From assembly GCF_030686945.1 (NCBI RefSeq), contig NW_027122708.1:5738248-5802247 (forward strand): a DNA stretch of 64,000 bases. The letters are read 5' to 3'. The position numbers and the translations under genes were made by a program. The DNA comes from Centruroides vittatus. Lineage: Eukaryota. The first letter of the stretch is position 1, and each line of letters starts with the position of its first letter. The notes below the pieces were generated by a model. The model did not search any database. It was not told the origin of the DNA and was given only the letters and a program-made list of their open reading frames with translations. Below, piece by piece: positions 1 to 29,288 of this stretch.

Positions 1-128
1 TGACTGGTTGTTCGTTCTGTACGCTCCTTTTGTGCTCTTTTATTCTTTCTTTTAATGACCTTCTTGTAGCTCCAATGTAGTACAGTTCTTTTTTCCGCCT
101 CTCATCTTGTACGGGTATTCTGTAAATT

Positions 129-910
129 TCAGGAATAAGGCTCTGGTCTATAGGTTTCTTGTCTGTACATAGCATCTGGTATATTGTTGGATTCCTTTTG
201 AAAACTGTCTTTTTGTTTGTTGCTGCTCCTATTTCTTTGTAAATATTGCTTAAGGGTGCCATGTATTGTATCACTGTGCAATCTATTTTTCTCCGTTCTA
301 CCTTCATTATTGACTTTTCTTGTTTTATTGATTAAAGCCTTTATTTTATTCTGATTGACTCCAACATGCCATGCTAGCTCTTTGATGTGTTCTAATTCTT
401 TACATCTGTCCTGCACTTTGCTGCAATGTGTGTATGCTCTTTTTATAAGTGTCCTGAAAGCTGCCAATTTATAACTTGCTGGGTCATGGGAGGTCCATGG
501 TATTAACAACAGATTATAAGTTGGCTTTCTGTAAACTTTAGTATTGATTTCCCCTCCTTTTTCTACTCCTATTGATATATCTAGGAAGTGTATCTTTTGA
601 TTATTCTCTTGTTCTAGCTCGAGCTCTAGGCCATACTTATTATCATTGACGTCTCTGAGAAATTGTTGTATGTCTGGTTTTTCTTTCCATATGATCAAGA
701 GGTCATCAACATATTGTGCATATGATAACATATGCACTTCGTATTTCTTTAAGATGGAATTCTCTAATGTCCTTAGTACCATCTTACATAGTGCTCCAGA
801 TACAGGACTTCCCATTGCCACTCCTCTATGTTGAGTGTATGTTATATCATTAAAATTGAAGACTGATGAATATGTAGCTAGATGTGCCAGTTCCAGTATC
901 TGCTTTCTTA
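129..910 (-). CDS. Penelope-like element (PLE) reverse transcriptase, C-terminal fragment (motif B VAMGSPVSG, motif C YVDD, thumb YRKPT..IPWTSHDP)
   Basis: ORF 129..821 contains QYVDDLLIIW and GSPVSGALCKMVL. The frame stays open upstream to 910, right up to the inserted inverted-repeat element. The YVDD catalytic motif and the YRKPTxxxLLxxxSxHP thumb are typical of PLE RTs. Confidence 0.6.
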
Positions 911-912
911 TC

Positions 913-1313
913 TTGTAAAGTACTATTTTTAGTATCTTAGGAAACTGACACTAACTGCGGCAGGTAAAACTTCCGTTAACCTAACGGGTACTTTACGCGG
1001 ATTCGAGATTAGTTTGCCAGGCCTGGGCTTTTACGCGTGCACCGAAAATATTAGTAAGAATAACGACAAATATCAAGTCAAAGCAAAAGTTTCAAATATA
1101 TTTAATTAGTAAATAGAATTTACTATGTACAATTGTCTATAATCCAAAACAAAATTTATTAACGAAAATCAACAAGTCAACCAGACAATAAAACTCAGCT
1201 ACATAGCTTAACTTAATCTTAATTCCCCTTTGAAAATTCGACAAATCAAATACTTAGGAACTATGAACAGAATCTCTTACGAACTAAACGTCTATCCGTC
1301 ACCTCACTATACT
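913..1313. repeat. Left terminal inverted repeat of the gag-only element
   Basis: Reverse-complement match to 2751..3152 with only about 6 mismatches over ~400 bp. ORFs 1230..1469(+) and 2634..2834(-) share the identical N-terminus MKIRQIKYLGTMNRISYELNVYPSPHYT because both read out of the repeat. Confidence 0.85.
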
Positions 1314-1494
1314 AGGAACCTGTTTCCTCAATCTTTTCGCTATCGTCAAATCGAATTCCTCTTTAACACCTTGGATCGCCTAATTCTCAATCTGGACATC
1401 GACCAGGAATCACCTCACTCTGGAATTCACCTCTTTACAGTAAGTAACAGAAAAAAAAAAATTAGATGAAAGTGCACCAGTAACCCGTGCTGAA

Positions 1495-2397
1495 TTGAAC
1501 CAGCACCAACAGCAATTGTCTGTCTTATTACAACAAGTGTCAACCTTGAGTAACGCAGTAACACACTTAACGTCTTATGTTACGAATGGAATTTCCGAGC
1601 CTACAACACCGAACGTTACTAGTGCTGTACGGCCCGAGGTGTCAATGCCAAGGCAAGATGTGCCTTCAGCGCCAAATACATCCATGGTTTGGCTGCAAAC
1701 AGCTCCGCCACCACCGGAGATACAATTTAACGGTAGGTCAAATATAACTGCATCCGATTTCTTGCAGGACCTCGAACAATATTTTTAAGTTAACCAAGTA
1801 CCTAGCGCTCGATTGGTGGATACTGCCGCCAGCCGTCTCTGCGGCAGCCCAGCGATGTGGTGGAAAAACGATGGCCGCCACAGAATTGGCTCCAGTTGGC
1901 CTTTATTTAAACAATCTTTTTTGGACTTGTATTCCCCTCTAGCAGACGAAATAGCCGTCGCCCGAGAACTTTTCAGCCGTCACTACACCGGCAACAACAA
2001 TGTAGAACAATTTATATGGACCACCGTACAACTATATCGCACTTGGTGACCTCTCGCACAAGAAGAGGAAATAATACAATGCATCGTTGCCCAGATGCCG
2101 TTACCACTTTGGGAGTATTTAGAAAATAGACGATCACACACTCTGAATGAACTAGTACGCACTGCTAAAGAGTACGAATTCCGCCGAAGTGGAAGTAAGC
2201 CTTCTGATGGTACCAGTTCCAGTCAGACCCACGTAAGTAAACCTCCTAAACCAAAATCTTCTACTCCAGCAAGACCAGCTGTGACATGTTATTCGTGCAG
2301 AGAAACTGGTCATTTCTCACGCGCTTACCCTAAAGGAAGACAACAAACAGTACAGACCAACAACAAAACATTTAAGACTCCAGGGTCCACTACTTGA
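1495..2397 (+). pseudogene. Retroelement Gag-like coding region split over three frames, with a degenerate CCHC knuckle
   Basis: ORFs 1495..1788, 1813..2049 and 2095..2397 read FNGRSNITASDFLQDLEQYF, ...AMWW..SWPLFKQSF..ELFSRHYTGNNNVEQFIW and ...CYSCRETGHFSRAYPKG. These resemble the retrotransposon gag (PF03732-like) pattern followed by a CX2CX4H zinc-knuckle remnant. Frameshifts lie between the three ORFs. Confidence 0.5.
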
Positions 2398-2750
2398 CTA
2401 AAGATGGCCATGACGAGAAGACAAATGTCGTTAAACTAGACGGGAGACAGCGAGAGGAGGACCCTGTCTCCAAACCAATAGGAAAAATTTTGGGATTAAA
2501 CTGCTCCCTAGTCACGCCAATTAAAATAGCGTGAACAATAATCAGTAACCTTGGATCGCGTGCGAATCTGTCAACATTCCCCAAAGTGTAAAGTAAATAT
2601 TTAAGATAACTTTAAGCGATCAACGAGTTGCTCTTACTTATGTAAAGGAAAACAAAAAAAAACTTTGTATGGGATGATTTGGTTGTGATTCTGGCAGCAA
2701 CTGTATAGAAAGGCACAATTGGAGAAGCAGAGTTGGAAATTTGGAAGTAA

Positions 2751-3152
2751 AGTATAGTGAGGTGACGGATAGACATTTAGTTCGTAAGAGATTCTGTTCA
2801 TAGTTCCTAAGTATTTGATTTGTCGAATTTTCAAAGGGGAATTAAGATTAAGTTAAGCTATGTAGCTGAGTTTTATTGTCGGGTTGACTTGTTGATTTTC
2901 GTTAATAAATTTTGTTTTGGATTATAGACAATTGTACATAGTAAATTCTATTTACTAATTATATATATTTGGAAACTTTTGCTTTGACTTGATATTTGTC
3001 GTTATTCTTACTAATATTTTCGGTGCACGCGTAAAAGCCCAGGCCTGGCAAACTAATCTCGAATCCGCGTAAAGTACCCGTTAGGTTAACGGAAGTTTTA
3101 CCGGCCGCAGTTAGTGTCGGTTTCCTAAGATACTAAAAATAGTACTTTACAA
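2751..3152. repeat. Right terminal inverted repeat of the gag-only element
   Basis: Reverse-complement match to 913..1313. Confidence 0.85.
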
Positions 3153-3498
3153 TCTTTGTTATATTTTCAATTTTGTTCAATAAGAAGTCTCTCAGATGGC
3201 AAAAGCATGGCTCAAGTTTAATTGAGGGGTATAAAGCCTTGAAATCTAGTACTGCCATATAACTTTTTTCTTTTAATTTCAAATTTTTCATTTTCTGGAG
3301 CAATTCTAGTGGCTGTTTTATGCTGTATTTGTGTGGAGGCATGTGAGCATTAATGAAACCTTTGAGTATCCATTCTAGAATTATCATTGGTGAGCAGCAT
3401 TTATCAACTACTGGCCTTATGTTTCTTTCCGGTTTGTGTGTCTTGGCAAACCCAAATAGTCTTGGAACTGATGGGGAGGGAACTACTATCTTCTTCAC
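3153..3498 (-). CDS. PLE reverse transcriptase N-terminal fragment (PRLFGFAKTHKP..IRPVV; motif A LDFKALYPSI)
   Basis: ORF 3133..3498 has its last 6 codons and the stop contributed by the inserted element. PxLYGLPKxHK...RPIV-like and hhDhxxxF motifs are present. It lies on the same strand and in reading-frame continuity with 129..910 once 913..3152 is removed. Confidence 0.55.
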
Positions 3499-4376
3499 CA
3501 GAGTTCTTTTGCTAGGGTTGTATTAGAAAAACGTGCTTGACTCCTTGCTTTTAACTACTCTAGTGCAGTCTTGCATTGCGTTTCCTTTATGTATCTTACT
3601 AAAAGCTCATTATATGTAGCTCTTTTCATTAATACCATGTCCTTCAACTTGGCAGCTCTTGTAAGCACTATATCATTTTCATTCATCCATTTTCTGCTTT
3701 CTCTTATATTTTTCCATATTGGGCTGCGGGTTGTTCTTGCGTATTTGGTCTTTATTTTGAATGCTGTTTTCCATCTGAATGTTTCTTTCTGAAGTTTGCT
3801 TAGCCCTACTATTGCTTGTTCTACATCAGGGATGATCTCTTCTTAGGTGAGTTTAGGCTGCAGAGTGTATTTTGGGCCGAATTTGCAGGCATAATGTTAT
3901 CCCAGCATATTATTGGTGCAGCATAAGACCACAGGGGGTGGCCTGTGGTCTTATGCTGCTCTGTTGCCGTGTTCTTATCCACTTAATTTTTTTCTCATAG
4001 TTTTTATGCATCCTTTCCATCACTTGATTCAATAAATTTACCACTCTGTTATTAATGTCTCCTAGTAAATTTGGATCTATTTCATACAGCTCATTTTCTA
4101 ATTCTACCAGTTTTTTCAACAAATATTTTCTGTGCTGTGTAGCATGAATAGCCTTTTTTAAGCATAATAATCTTTAATCTTGGGAGAAGTGAAGTGCAGG
4201 CATATTCTCCATATTGACACAGGGACTACGTTGCAATTTTTGAATTCCATTAAGAAGTTCAATTTGGCTTTTTTCTTACAAATCTTTAACCAATAACCAA
4301 TTTTACCAATTTTAACCAATAACCAATTTTAATTTTACCAATTTTTGATAAATTTTGGCCGGCATTGCCATTATAC

Positions 4377-5246
4377 ACTCTTCTCGAACTGCACTTACAA
4401 AAATAACTACACTTTACCAACCGTTAACATGCAGTCTATTTTATTAAAGTAATCTAACATTACAAAAAAACACTTACGTAAGAACCAGATAACCGGAGTG
4501 GTTGATATTAGGATCGCTAACGTTTTCGTAGCTCCATCTGGGCTCTTCTTCAGGCTTTGTAGTAATAAATATAAGCCGTATGTGTAAGCCGGTTATCTGG
4601 TTCTTACATAAGTGCGTTTTTGTATTGAATCCCGGTGTGTAAAGAAGATTGATTATATTCGAAATTCAACATACAGTTTATATTTCTTACTACAAAGCCT
4701 GAAGAAGAGCCCAGAAGGGCTACGAAAACATTAGCGACCCTAATATCAACCACTCTGGTTATCTGGTTCTTATGTAAGTGTGTTTTTGTATTGAATTCTG
4801 GTGTGTAAAGAAGATTGATTAATCTAACATTTTTGGTCAATTAATTGACCTTTGTCAGGATTGAACAATTTTTCAATTTATGATGAACGAAACCAATTAT
4901 AGAACATTTTTAACTTTAAAAGTTTTCTCAACACGTAATTCTTCATTATTATTAATTTTTATTTTTACTTTTATTTATATGTATAGTTAGTGTATGCATA
5001 TATTTGTACATTATCAGTCTGTAGATTCTATTTACCTATTTTCAGACTTTTGCAATAGGCATTGAGAAAACTTTTAAAGTTAAAAACGTTCTATAATCGG
5101 TTTCGTTCATCATAAATTGAAAAACTGTTTGATCCTGATGAAGGCCAATTAATTGACCAAAAACATTAGATTGCTTTAATAAAATAGACTGCATGTTAAA
5201 GGTTGGTGAAGTGTAGTTATTTTTATAAGTGCAGTTCGAGAAGAGT
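4377..5246. mobile_element. Composite foldback structure: outer ~70 bp inverted repeats, inner ~110 bp inverted repeats, and a nested hairpin-family element
   Basis: 4377..4450 is the reverse complement of 5175..5246. 4828..4935 is the reverse complement of 5050..5160. The left arm carries an extra 4470..4782 insert that is itself a hairpin repeat. Confidence 0.5.
4470..4782. repeat. Hairpin repeat family A copy (acacttacgtaagaaccagataaccggagtg...)
   Basis: Internal inverted halves 4470..4565 and 4687..4782, plus a direct repeat of gtgtttttgtattgaat..ggtgtgtaaagaagattgatta. Homologous to 49856..50029. Confidence 0.55.
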
Positions 5247-13329: not shown

Positions 13330-14589
13330 GTAACTCGTCAGAACTGTTATAGCTTAGCTGGGATGTGTTATCACACCAACCATATTCGCCAGATCGGGCA
13401 CACTCAGATTATTACTTGTTCCGGTCTATACAAATTTTTTTTAACTACAAGACATTTACTTGAAATGACAGTGTTAAAAATCACTTGAATCAGTTTTTGT
13501 AAACAACGATCAAAACTTTTATGAATGTGAAATCATGCTATTACCAGAAACAATGACAACAGGTATTTGACCAAAATGGTCAATATATAATTCAATAAAA
13601 TAATTTATTTATTATAAGAATATTGCATTTATTTTTCTATGGAAAAAACGAAATTACTTTTCAAACAACCCAATACTTTGGGCTTCTCAGCCAGGGATGC
13701 CCATACAATGGGGCACTTGGAGCATGTGCCCCCTTTTATCTGTGTTTCCCTTTTCCTAATCCCCAAGGGGATCCCAAATTCCATTATTGACAAACAACAA
13801 AATTCATGACTTCTGGCCTATTCTGCAAATATAAAAGAAACTAAGAAATGATATCTGTCCACAGTCCCATACAGTTTCATTATATGTTGATCAAGACTTG
13901 GCCTTGAAAACAAGGAATGTTCCTTTTTTTGGAGGCTAAGTTAGTCCCAATTGCAATCAGTGCCACCTTGTAGGAGCACTGATCTGATACCGAGTTTGAA
14001 GCTTCATAAATAATGTATGATCCCCTTTTTTTTTATAGCTTGTTGCCCCCTTTTATATAGTTTGCAGGCACTGCTGTTCTCAGCCCATCATAAGGGGTAA
14101 AAACTGTCGTAAAAAAGTTAGAATCATTATGGTTGTATAGAATTGTACAGTTGTTGTGTATTTAAAACATATTTTCTTCATATGGGAATCAACTGGCTCT
14201 AGGTACTGTACCTTGATTATTATTCAATCAAATTATGAAGAATCACAGTATTTAATAAAATGGCTCTTTTTATGAAAAAATTTATTGAACTCTATTCTGA
14301 AGTCATCTCTTTAGAATTTAATATTATGGTTTTCTTTTGGTCAGTTTTTATCCTTGATGTTGGACAGGAGGTCCAATATACAATATTTGGGTTTAGAGAA
14401 AATACTTTATTGGTCTCTGTGAGAACAGGAGGTTCCAGTCTATTCCGTCCTACATGTGATAGCCATTCAAAATATCACTGAAAGTCAAGAATATATGAAT
14501 ATTCAGACTTTCTCAATACTATTGTCAAGAGCCTGACACCAGTTAGAATAAAACTATTTTGCATCCCAACTTGCAAATTAATCCTTTCA

Positions 14590-26877: not shown

Positions 26878-29288
26878 GTGACTACAAGTTCTAAGGCTAT
26901 GAAAGAATTTATAAAAAACATTAGTATTTTAGTAGGAGAAAAAGGTGGCGGAGGTGATAGGGTGAATGATGTCAAAACCGCAATGACTGTCATACCAGAA
27001 GTGATTATACAGCATGAAATTGGACTTCTTGAATTTGATAAGAATACAGGGAAAGTAATTCTGTCAGATTATTTAAAAACAGAAATAATTAAATTGGGTT
27101 CAAAATATTTTCAAAATACTGAAGGTCCTTTCTTGCCAACAAATAACCATTGTATGAACAAAAGTTGGTTTAAGAAGAAACTAGGAAATCGCGGTGAAGA
27201 AGTGAATCGCTCATGGCTAGTCTATTCCCCGACTACACAATCAGTTTTTGCATCTGTCGTCTTATCTTTTTACAATTAGATAATCAATCTTCATTAGAGC
27301 ACAAAGATGGATTTACCCACTGGAAAGTACCTGAAAGGCTCACTACACATGAAAATGCGAAGAACCATCGTGAGTGTTTCACACAGTGGAAGGAAATGGA
27401 AAGAAATTTTGCAGCTAATAAAGGGATCATTGACATTGAATTTCAAACCCAGATCGAGACAGAAAAACAAAAGTGGCATAACGTATTAAAAAGTATCAAA
27501 TTTCTTGCTTCTCAAAATCTTGCATTACAAGGTCACAGGGGTCACTCACTACATAGCGATGGACTACGAGGTCATTGCACTACAAGGTTACTCACTACAT
27601 GCGATGGAACCGAATCCAGTAATGCTGGTAATTTCTTTGGATTAATAAAACTCTTGGCCATATTCGACCCTGTCATGAATAACCATCTTACTCATGTTAA
27701 AAATAATCCCAGAACCACATCTTACTTTTCACCTCAAGTTCAAAATGAGTTCATTCATCTGATGGCGACCACTGTTTGCTAAAGTTTATTGCAAAGCATT
27801 TGCAAATCGAAATACTATGGACACATGTTTGACTCAACTCCTGATCAGGTACATTGTGGGCAGATGTCAGAAGTAGTGAGATATGTAGAGGTTGATTTTG
27901 AGAGAAAATTAGTCCATGTTAGAGAGTCCTTTCTTGGTTTCATTCAGATAAGTCAAAAGGATGCTGTAAGTTTAGCTGACGAAATACTTAAACAGCTAGG
28001 GAAAGACAATATGGATCTACAGGATTGTTTTTCACAATGTTATGACAACGCTGCTGTGATGGCTGAGCACCAAACTGGAGTTCACCAAAGAATAAGTGAA
28101 AAGAATAATCTGGCAATATTTGTGAATTGTGATAATCATTCACTCAATTTGGTCAGTGTACATGCAGCCAAGCAGGACACTTTAATGGTCACGTTTTTCG
28201 AAACTATTGAAGCTCTTTACATATTCTTTACTCATTCCACTCTGTGCTGGGAAAAACTCAAAAAATGCATGCCTGTGGTTGTAAAATCAGAGTCCGAAAC
28301 AAGATAGAGTGCAAAGGTTGAAGCAGTAAAGCCAGTTCACAAATATCTTGAAGATATGCTGAACCTTCTCCAAGATATGACAGACGATAGCGATCAAACC
28401 ACTGAAACAAGAAGGGAGGCCAGACTTCTTCATAATCACATGTTGTCCTACGATTTTCTGACGTTAGGATTTTGGAATGATGTACTCGCTTCCATTGACC
28501 ATGTCCAAAAGCGGCTCCAGGACCCTAGTATGAATTTTCATAATGCTGCCTTGGACATAAAAGCCCTCCGAGACTATTTTTCAAATGAAGGAGAGAGGTT
28601 AGTTAATGAGGCATTAAAAAGAAGATTCAATCTTTGCCAGAAATGGGATGTAGCCATGGAAAGGCGTCAAAGGCGAAAAAATGTATGTCTGGAGAGAGTG
28701 CGTCAGACGCAGGCTTGACCGCTAAAGAAGAAATGGAACGAGTAATGAAGGAATCGCTGGATCATATTGTGTGTGAAATGAGTAAAAAGTTTACTCATTT
28801 GCATGAAACTGACACGAGATTTGCATTTCTTCTAGATGTTAAAACACTGTGTTATAACATTGACAAGTGCAACAATTTAAAAAAGAATGTAAAGAATTCG
28901 GAGATTTCTATGGTTGTGATGTTAACAGGGAACAGTTATATGAAGAAATATTGGATGTTCAAATACTAACATCTACAAGAAAAAACATCAACATAAAGAA
29001 ATGTGAAGAGCTACTTGAAGTTATTGTGCAGTACGGGGATGAAAGTGTATTTCTAAATCTGCACATTTCCATTCAAATTCTGCTCACAATTGCAGCATCC
29101 ATTGCAAGTTGTGAGCAATCTTTCAGTAAGTTAAAATTCATACTTTGTATTTGAGGGCTACAATGGGTCAAGAAAGGTTATGCGACCTAGCTTTGCTCAG
29201 TGTAGAGCAAGAAAAAATGGAAAAGACTAATTTCGAAATCATCATAGATATGTTTGCGTCGCAGAAGGCCAGAAAGGTGCAATTGTAA
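26878..29288 (+). pseudogene. hAT-superfamily transposase (ZMYM1-like: TTF-type zinc finger, DUF4371-like region and hAT C-terminal dimerization domain), disrupted by at least 3 frameshifts and 2 in-frame stops
   Basis: SWLVYSPTT/ISFCICRLIF...DGFTHWKVPERLTTHENAKNH (TTF zinc finger). LALQGHRGH..SSNAGNFFGLIKLLAIFDPVMNNHL. NCDNHSLNLVSVHAAK. CEQSFSKLKFI then LRATMGQERLCDLALLSVEQE...IIDMFASQKARKVQL. The reading frame switches between six consecutive ORFs in the track. Confidence 0.65.

Follow-up and report, generated by a model that had tools for sequence, protein, structure and literature searches.

What kind of mobile element carries a gag gene and nothing else between two long inverted repeats, and how did it come to lie within the coding sequence of another transposable element (TE)? 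This question is raised by a 2.24 kb element found in a 64,000-nucleotide stretch of the genome of the scorpion Centruroides vittatus (RefSeq assembly GCF_030686945.1, contig NW_027122708.1, positions 5,738,248 to 5,802,247, forward strand). This whole stretch is called the window below, and positions refer to it unless another sequence is named; coordinates of the features are collected in Table 1. The element interrupts the reverse transcriptase (RT) open reading frame (ORF) of a Penelope-like element (PLE). A first-pass annotation had taken it for a recent insertion, reminiscent of DIRS elements, with a 2-bp target duplication that fitted no textbook class. Our own answer, to which we give about an even chance, is that it is a non-autonomous, gag-only derivative of a Ty3/gypsy (Metaviridae-type) long terminal repeat (LTR) retrotransposon, having inverted LTR-like ends, inserted by an integrase, and nested in a dead PLE.

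The 2.24 kb unit entered the PLE in one piece. As the first-pass annotation had noted, deletion of positions 913-3154 fuses the minus-strand PLE RT in frame (...LLNKIENITK/IRKQILELAHLATYSS..., the slash marking the junction; in a longer view ...AVLDFKALYPSIKLEPCFCHLRDFLLNKIENITK/IRKQILELAHLATYSSVFNFNDITYTQHRGVAMGSPVSG...YVDDLLI...), and the continuous ORF so obtained matches RVT_1 with an E value of 1e-15. The insertion site is located between RT motifs A and B. The comparison with empty-site paralogues that had been proposed was also carried out: 9 Centruroides PLE paralogues, 44-68% identical to the host, span the junction without a gap or an extra residue (for example P0163, LLGNVKNAVKLRKQILELAHLATFSS), so that the boundaries of the insertion are exact. 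The assignment of the host to the PLEs is based on the presence of both an RT and a GIY-YIG domain, since the LYYIGATRRSLKERIKEHK motif aligns where the paralogues have their GIY-YIG region. This PLE is a degraded copy: without the insert its RT ORF is continuous over 374 aa, with stops in the N-terminal part and the GIY-YIG motif off-frame. In C. vittatus and C. sculpturatus, more than 30 PLE paralogues go under the label "uncharacterized", and one under "telomerase reverse transcriptase-like".

The two arms of the element differ by 5 substitutions and 1 indel over 401/402 nt, which corresponds to 98.5% identity (BLAST E value of 0) and agrees with the 98% estimated previously; they are identical to the very tips. 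Between them, gag is the sole gene. No protease (PR), RT, RNase H (RH), integrase (IN) or tyrosine recombinase (YR) is encoded, and there is no room for such an enzyme outside gag, the leader and the 3′ spacer being too short and the spacer having no ORF. The earlier description of a gag-only cargo is thus confirmed. No direct repeat longer than 27 nt is present in the element, and a blastn search with a word size of 11 detected no other match to it within the window.

The bases at the edges of the element can be read in two ways. In the reading of the first-pass annotation, the element spans 913-3152, has tips TTGT...ACAA, and is flanked by a tc dinucleotide at 911-912 and 3153-3154. The outermost pair of the arms, T913/A3152, can also be assigned to the flanks. 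The element then spans 914-3151 (TGTAAAG...CTTTACA), its tips are TGTAA...TTACA, and it is bordered by a perfect ATCT duplication at 910-913 and 3152-3155. The empty site is identical under both readings. The 4-bp reading needs one coincidence, namely that the first and last bases of the target-site duplication (TSD) are complementary (1/4), and the 2-bp reading needs two (1/16). Under the favoured 4-bp reading, the tips and the ATCT duplication form the signature of a retroviral-type DDE integrase. Tips of the TGTNR type are found in Ginger and in most Gypsy elements, and 4-bp TSDs in Ginger (PMC2836005), while most LTR retrotransposons have TG..CA termini and TSDs of 4-6 bp (PMC12440569). 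The tc repeats reported earlier are present, but the same bases read equally well as a longer duplication, and the argument that they fit no known class is weak and largely dissolves, because a 4-bp TSD with TG...CA ends is the classical integrase signature. A Tc1/mariner-type transposon, which would leave a 2-bp TA duplication, is ruled out, as the flanks are tc/tc and no reading yields TA.

The product of gag consists of a capsid and a CCHC nucleocapsid. Pfam matches were obtained with Retrotrans_gag, Arc_C and zf-CCHC, the intact proteins being above threshold for Retrotrans_gag and zf-CCHC, and a profile of the Gag family matches bilobar Arc capsid structures (E value of 9e-21) as well as retroviral nucleocapsid knuckles. 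The conceptual Gag of the window shares 92% identity with an intact 324-aa protein of C. vittatus (XP_067140579.1) and 72-74% with a group of 326-aa proteins from the same species, all annotated as "uncharacterized protein". One C. sculpturatus fragment has been named "activity-regulated cytoskeleton-associated protein-like" by NCBI.

The window copy of gag is a pseudogene, though not a frameshifted one as first supposed: a single frame runs through it, and the lesions, compared to the intact homologue, are the loss of the start codon (ATG to TTA), three in-frame stops (TAA at 1786, TGA at 2047 and TGA at 2395) and the change of the final Cys of the zinc knuckle to Tyr at 2326. The knuckle had been correctly described as degenerate. 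The window copy is separated from the intact protein by 25 single-step amino-acid differences. In 15 of them the change is C>T or G>A toward the window copy, and 9 of these 15 are CpG-compatible (among them R to stop, and R replaced by Q, C or W). From its sequence, this pattern looks like deamination-type decay of a silenced copy. Decay is uneven along the element, as the arms keep several CpGs and differ at just 6 sites, and gag is rich in C>T and G>A changes.

These lesions bear on the age of the insertion. Given 0.75% divergence per arm, the 978-nt gag should have acquired only some 7 substitutions after the insertion, and at least 6 disabling changes are seen. The window copy was therefore probably already gag-defective when it was mobilised, that is, dead on arrival for Gag. 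Alternatively, gene conversion between the arms may have occurred after insertion. The recent insertion that had been deduced from the arms is thus uncertain, as a heavily decayed gag lies between them.

Relatives of the Gag were searched exhaustively with HMMER over 1.8 billion representatives. The more distant ones sit in ordinary Ty3/gypsy gag-PR-RT-RH-IN units. In P0012, the arrangement Ty3_capsid-PR-RT-RNaseH-Integrase_H2C2-rve is found in one protein; gag is followed by a PR-RT-RH-IN ORF at locus L004 and by a 979-aa ORF at L003, and an IDTGAD protease motif comes directly after gag at L005. Because the relatives belong to PR-RT-RH-integrase units and not to YR elements, the Gag lineage is, as judged from this comparison, Ty3/gypsy and not DIRS. 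In the window, the segment 2435-2491 (TRRETARGGPCLQTNRKNF) resembles TKQEAKAGGLCLYNGKNL, which is located 3′ of gag at L002; the match is weak (E value of 0.02), and the segment may be a remnant of the start of pol.

The gag-only state is shared by two subfamilies, as the 324-aa and 326-aa proteins terminate at the same ...LN stop. The 326-aa type comprises five distinct sequences, 98-100% identical to each other and represented by at least 14 listed XP accessions on many C. vittatus contigs, which indicates that this type was recently amplified. The sequence KZ495114.1 of C. sculpturatus (L001 below) contains two copies of the 326-aa type, c1 and c2, both degraded. The window gag was aligned by codons with each of them, which gave dN/dS ratios of 0.10-0.11 and a saturated dS of about 1.5. 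Such values argue that gag was under strong purifying selection during the divergence of the subfamilies.

A homologue of the arm is present in C. sculpturatus, at L001 13571-13940, about 320 nt 3′ of the end of the gag homology of c2, and its orientation relative to gag is that of the right arm of the window element. Identity with the arm is 72% overall and rises to about 90% in a core of some 75 nt (window ~3019-3100, TTCGGTGCACGCGTAAAAGCCCAGGCCTGGCA...CGAATCCGCGTAAAGTACCCGT, mirrored at ~965-1046 in the left arm); the outermost ~60 nt are the least conserved stretch of the repeat between subfamilies. This core is thus constrained as well, because it is about 90% conserved while the leader and 3′ spacer are unalignable between subfamilies and synonymous sites are saturated. 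The c2 repeat also runs at least 20 nt further inward than the right arm of the window, matching there the left leader (AGGAACCTGTTTCCTCAA, 1314-1331), and since this match continues past position 1313, it suggests a complete repeat unit of more than 401 nt. For c2, the sequence to the left is hidden by an assembly gap of 3359 N. Upstream of c1, the arm has no significant counterpart, whichever orientation is taken; the only match is to 31 nt of an unrelated palindrome, and a 20-nt match considered as a left-arm remnant was rejected as being at chance level.

Several searches around the core and the family were negative. No Rfam or tRNA match was obtained for the core (965-1046/3019-3100), exact-pattern scans for it in metagenome, GTDB genome and viral collections returned nothing, and gag-based locus searches of the metagenome and viral collections returned nothing either. 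Within the core, CGCGTAAA(A)G..CCC occurs twice in direct orientation, and there are two palindromes, ACGCGT and CCAGGCCTGG. On L001 (2621-3302, 5417-7201), tandem repeats with units of about 450 and 370 nt are present along with inverted copies about 3 kb away, and a 64-nt near-perfect palindrome (13975-14038) adjoins the c2 repeat, a half-copy of it lying 120 nt upstream of c1.

Other features of LTRs were looked for in the element. A candidate LTR unit, 914-1358 (TGTAAAG...CTTTAACA), starts with TG and ends with CA in short terminal inverted repeats. Its last two bases (1357-1358) belong to the leader, and are followed 3 nt later by the only TGG of the leader (1362-1364); positions 1362-1376 read TGGATCGCCTAATTC. 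We know of no tRNA 3′ end that matches the bases 3′ of this TGG. In the orientation of the left arm, a TATA-like sequence at 1139 precedes an AATAAA at 1188, and in the opposite orientation no AATAAA is found downstream of the TATA. This order weakly suggests, in such AT-rich DNA, that the left arm is the sense LTR. A tRNA search with ARAGORN returned none, Rfam gave nothing credible, whether for the element (E values up to 1) or for the arm (E values up to 10), and the fold predicted for the outer 143 nt of the arm is no better than those of shuffled sequences (z of −0.26 and +0.28). A 9-mer at 2587 (TGTAAAGTA) was tried as a relic of a direct 3′ LTR and scores below the level of shuffles; an inverted terminal 9-mer within the arm (915-923 against 988-996) was discarded too, some 0.3 such pairs being expected by chance. 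Immediately 5′ of the gag start, at 1444-1461, the splice-donor-like sequence GTAAGTA is found with a run of A (11 in the window), and likewise in c1 (L001 7766-7779), so that this arrangement is common to both subfamilies.

How could such an element propagate, if it is a gag-only Ty3/gypsy derivative? Intact copies would make Gag, and Gag would package the RNA of the element, with RT, RNase H and integrase supplied in trans by an autonomous Ty3/gypsy element. R-to-R strand transfer being impossible between inverted repeats, we propose that each arm would be rebuilt from the other by intramolecular templating, of the panhandle or snap-back type. This rebuilding would parallel the step with which repair begins in the DIRS model, where one terminal repeat is restored from the other, but it would do without the internal complementary region (ICR); the analogy is plausible for the identity of the arms observed here. 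Integrase would finally join the TG...CA-ended linear DNA to its target and produce the 4-bp duplication. That the inverted layout is the transmissible form of the family is a proposition towards which we lean slightly. It is doubtful, on the other hand, that this layout is passed on as such in a long-lived lineage that has given up the replication of LTR retrotransposons, and that moves either as DNA, its two inverted LTR ends being cut and joined by an integrase or transposase of the retroviral type, or as ICR-free panhandle cDNA.

A number of observations weigh against the gag-only Ty3/gypsy derivative and its proposed cycle. The search for Gag relatives, which the first-pass annotation had called for, did return distant relatives with RT and DDE integrase, but no close Gag-Pol partner was found among Centruroides proteins, and a second, profile-based search gave known matches only. 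No primer-binding site (PBS) of the tRNA type was found, the 48 nt next to the arm end being devoid of TGG, and the purine-rich stretch beside the right arm (2717-2750) is only weakly similar to a polypurine tract (PPT). The 4-bp duplication is favoured only about 4 fold over the 2-bp one, and this from one copy. The arms are nearly identical, yet gag is heavily mutated, which requires an extra assumption. We know of no reverse-transcription scheme that copies inverted LTRs without an ICR. Finally, the inverted layout is complete in one copy only, the left side of c2 being gapped and the upstream region of c1 having no match; c2 is compatible with a family of direct LTRs in the orientation of its repeat, in which case the left arm of the window element would be the odd one.

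This last point leads to the explanation that the window element is a one-off, aberrant and dead-end copy from an ordinary family of non-autonomous, gag-only retrotransposons with direct LTRs, similar to the TR-GAG elements discussed below, one LTR having been flipped through snap-back or strand-switching in an aberrant cDNA that integrase still inserted, or by a later inversion in place. We judge it unlikely. Just one full copy has been seen (in the 64 kb window), its gag is already decayed, and since the candidate LTR has TG...CA ends both ways, integrase could accept it in flipped orientation. Moreover, the inner ~45 nt of the left unit are missing from the right arm and kept (at least 20 nt of them) in the C. 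sculpturatus repeat, which suggests an arbitrary junction. That same C. sculpturatus repeat is however oriented as the right arm of the window, so that if the left arm is the sense LTR, the right ends of both copies would have been flipped; the sense assignment from the TATA and AATAAA motifs is a weak argument in AT-rich DNA. As to inversion in place between 8-nt repeats, such events are very rare. A different proposal keeps the inverted layout and does without reverse transcription: a Ginger-like DNA transposon, with long terminal inverted repeats (TIRs), would be cut and pasted by an integrase-like transposase acting in trans, gag being a cargo with another function. Ginger1 and Ginger2/Tdd have TGTNR tips and 4-bp TSDs, as has the scorpion element in one of its two readings, and they are evolutionarily tied to the Gypsy integrase; their TIRs were proposed by Bao, Kapitonov and Jurka (2010) to derive from two LTRs in opposite orientation (PMC2836005). 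Perfect long TIRs are what a DNA transposon needs, and neither a PBS nor an ICR was found here. Nevertheless, Ginger elements encode the integrase-like transposase and no gag, have TIRs of 40-270 nt, and insert at CCGG/CCGT or RTATAY (PMC2836005), whereas the scorpion element has gag as its only gene, 400-nt TIRs, the target ATCT, and no transposase within it, none having been linked to its repeat so far. The outermost ~60 nt, the least conserved part of the repeat, also speak against this proposal, and purifying selection on a capsid-nucleocapsid gene (dN/dS of 0.1) is hard to reconcile with a cycle limited to DNA. We consider it improbable.

Much less probable still is a non-autonomous DIRS1-like YR retroelement, mobilised by the RT and YR of a DIRS element, in which the short flanking repeat would be a recombination core rather than a TSD. 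Long inverted terminal repeats, gag as first ORF and short identical flanking sequences are indeed common to both (PMC3266345, PMC7192593). DIRS elements, unlike ours, have an ICR, shown experimentally to be essential in DIRS-1 (PMC7192593), inverted repeats with non-identical tips, and a coding capacity for RT, RH, a methyltransferase (MT) and YR, without protease or DDE integrase. None of the ICR, RT and YR is found in the scorpion element: the outer 100 nt, in both orientations, aligned against 1314-2750, score 16-20, against shuffled controls that average 19.7 and reach 34 at most. With arms identical to the very tips and Gag relatives that occur in PR-RT-RH-integrase units, protease and DDE integrase being Ty3/gypsy features, the resemblance to DIRS suggested by the first-pass annotation does not hold. 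It is scarcely credible, lastly, that the locus is a duplicated pseudogene of a domesticated, Arc-like host gene family, and its repeats mere relics. Arc, dArc and other domesticated Ty3/gypsy Gag genes do share with it the bilobar capsid fold family and gag-only coding units, a C. sculpturatus fragment bears the Arc-like name, the profile matches the Arc capsid, and dN/dS is low. Arc genes are however single-copy and devoid of terminal repeats and TSDs, while the scorpion element is multicopy, with at least 14 listed near-identical gene models over many contigs, has conserved terminal repeats, and was inserted precisely, with a target duplication, inside the ORF of another TE.

Coming back to the gag-only Ty3/gypsy derivative, the closest described kind of element is TR-GAG, a group of non-autonomous LTR elements from plants, less than 4 kb long, in which Gag is the only ORF; their LTRs are direct, and they possess a PBS complementary to a tRNA, a PPT and a TSD of 5 bp (Chaparro et al. 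2015; PMC4350172). Barley BARE-2 is another type of non-autonomous LTR element (Fig. 1 in PMC4350172). The scorpion element resembles TR-GAG by its size below 4 kb, its Gag as only ORF, the length of its terminal repeats (in the range of 400-500 nt) and, in the 4-bp reading, its TG...CA tips and short TSD of the integrase type, and also by being multicopy and presumably dependent in trans on autonomous LTR elements. It differs from these plant elements by its inverted, instead of direct, repeats, by the lack of a detectable tRNA PBS, and by a TSD of 4 (or 2) bp. LTR-like repeats inverted around a gag under purifying selection are unusual, and we found no described class with this exact layout: no such element was encountered in searches of the literature on gag combined with inverted LTRs and on scorpion TEs.

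Table 1. Positions of the element, its parts and its host in the window (the slash separates the outermost arm base from the rest of the arm)
Feature	Position	Length	Strand	Remarks
PLE 3′ part	1-912		-	RT motifs B and C, thumb; GIY-YIG LYYIGATRRSLKERIKEHK in other frame near window start
Left target duplication	910-913 ATCT (4-bp reading); 911-912 tc (2-bp reading)			identical to 3152-3155
Element	913-3152	2.24 kb		first and last bases TTGTAAAG...CTTTACAA in the 2-bp reading
Left inverted-repeat arm	913-1313	401 nt	+	outer end T/TGTAAAGTAC; 98.5% identical to right arm
Leader	1314-1461	148 nt	+	between left arm and gag
gag pseudogene, capsid and CCHC nucleocapsid	1462-2439		+	single frame
Degenerate zinc knuckle CYSCRETGHFSRAY	2287-2328		+	last Cys to Tyr (TGC to TAC, 2326); intact homologues CYSCGETGHFSRTC
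3′ spacer	2440-2750	311 nt	+	between gag and right arm
Right inverted-repeat arm	2751-3152	402 nt	-	outer end ...GTACTTTACA/A
Right target duplication	3152-3155 ATCT (4-bp reading); 3153-3154 tc (2-bp reading)			
PLE 5′ part	3155-4122		-	N-terminal region and RT motif A (AVLDFKALYPSI); stops upstream; N-terminus aligns to P0166, P0172

Two further features of the window were recorded. A nest of inverted repeats covers 4377-5246, just past the point (~4122) at which the PLE ORF of the minus strand begins. Its pairs include 4377-4457/5166-5246 (95%), 4821-4931/5062-5172 (91%) and 4458-4532/4719-4793 (92%), among others; it could be a cluster of miniature inverted-repeat TEs (MITEs) or foldback elements, or the PLE's own upstream repeat. 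Further along, on the plus strand, two adjacent ORFs of 189 and 172 aa (27213-28307) give weak matches to consecutive parts of the DUF4371 profile, and look like a split hAT/ZMYM1-like transposase-derived gene or pseudogene.

The meaning of the finding depends on whether the inverted arrangement is the norm of the family. Should the window element be a single flipped copy, we are dealing with one TE nested in another, an ordinary event that matters little. If the arrangement is the norm, the family consists of gag-only elements with ends of the integrase type that are unable to use the canonical R-to-R transfer, and this would point to either a new way of regenerating terminal repeats, or integrase-driven mobility, as DNA, of LTR-derived ends. 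The DNA route bears on the question of whether transposons of the Ginger type arose from LTR elements or gave rise to them, and if true, it would provide a living example of the intermediate with opposite LTRs from which Ginger arose in the hypothesis of Bao et al. (2010). Pipelines that search for LTR elements by requiring direct repeats miss such families, whose Gag proteins are listed in RefSeq as "uncharacterized" or "Arc-like" host proteins. With the inverted arrangement as the family norm, the TR-GAG concept would be extended from plants to arthropods.

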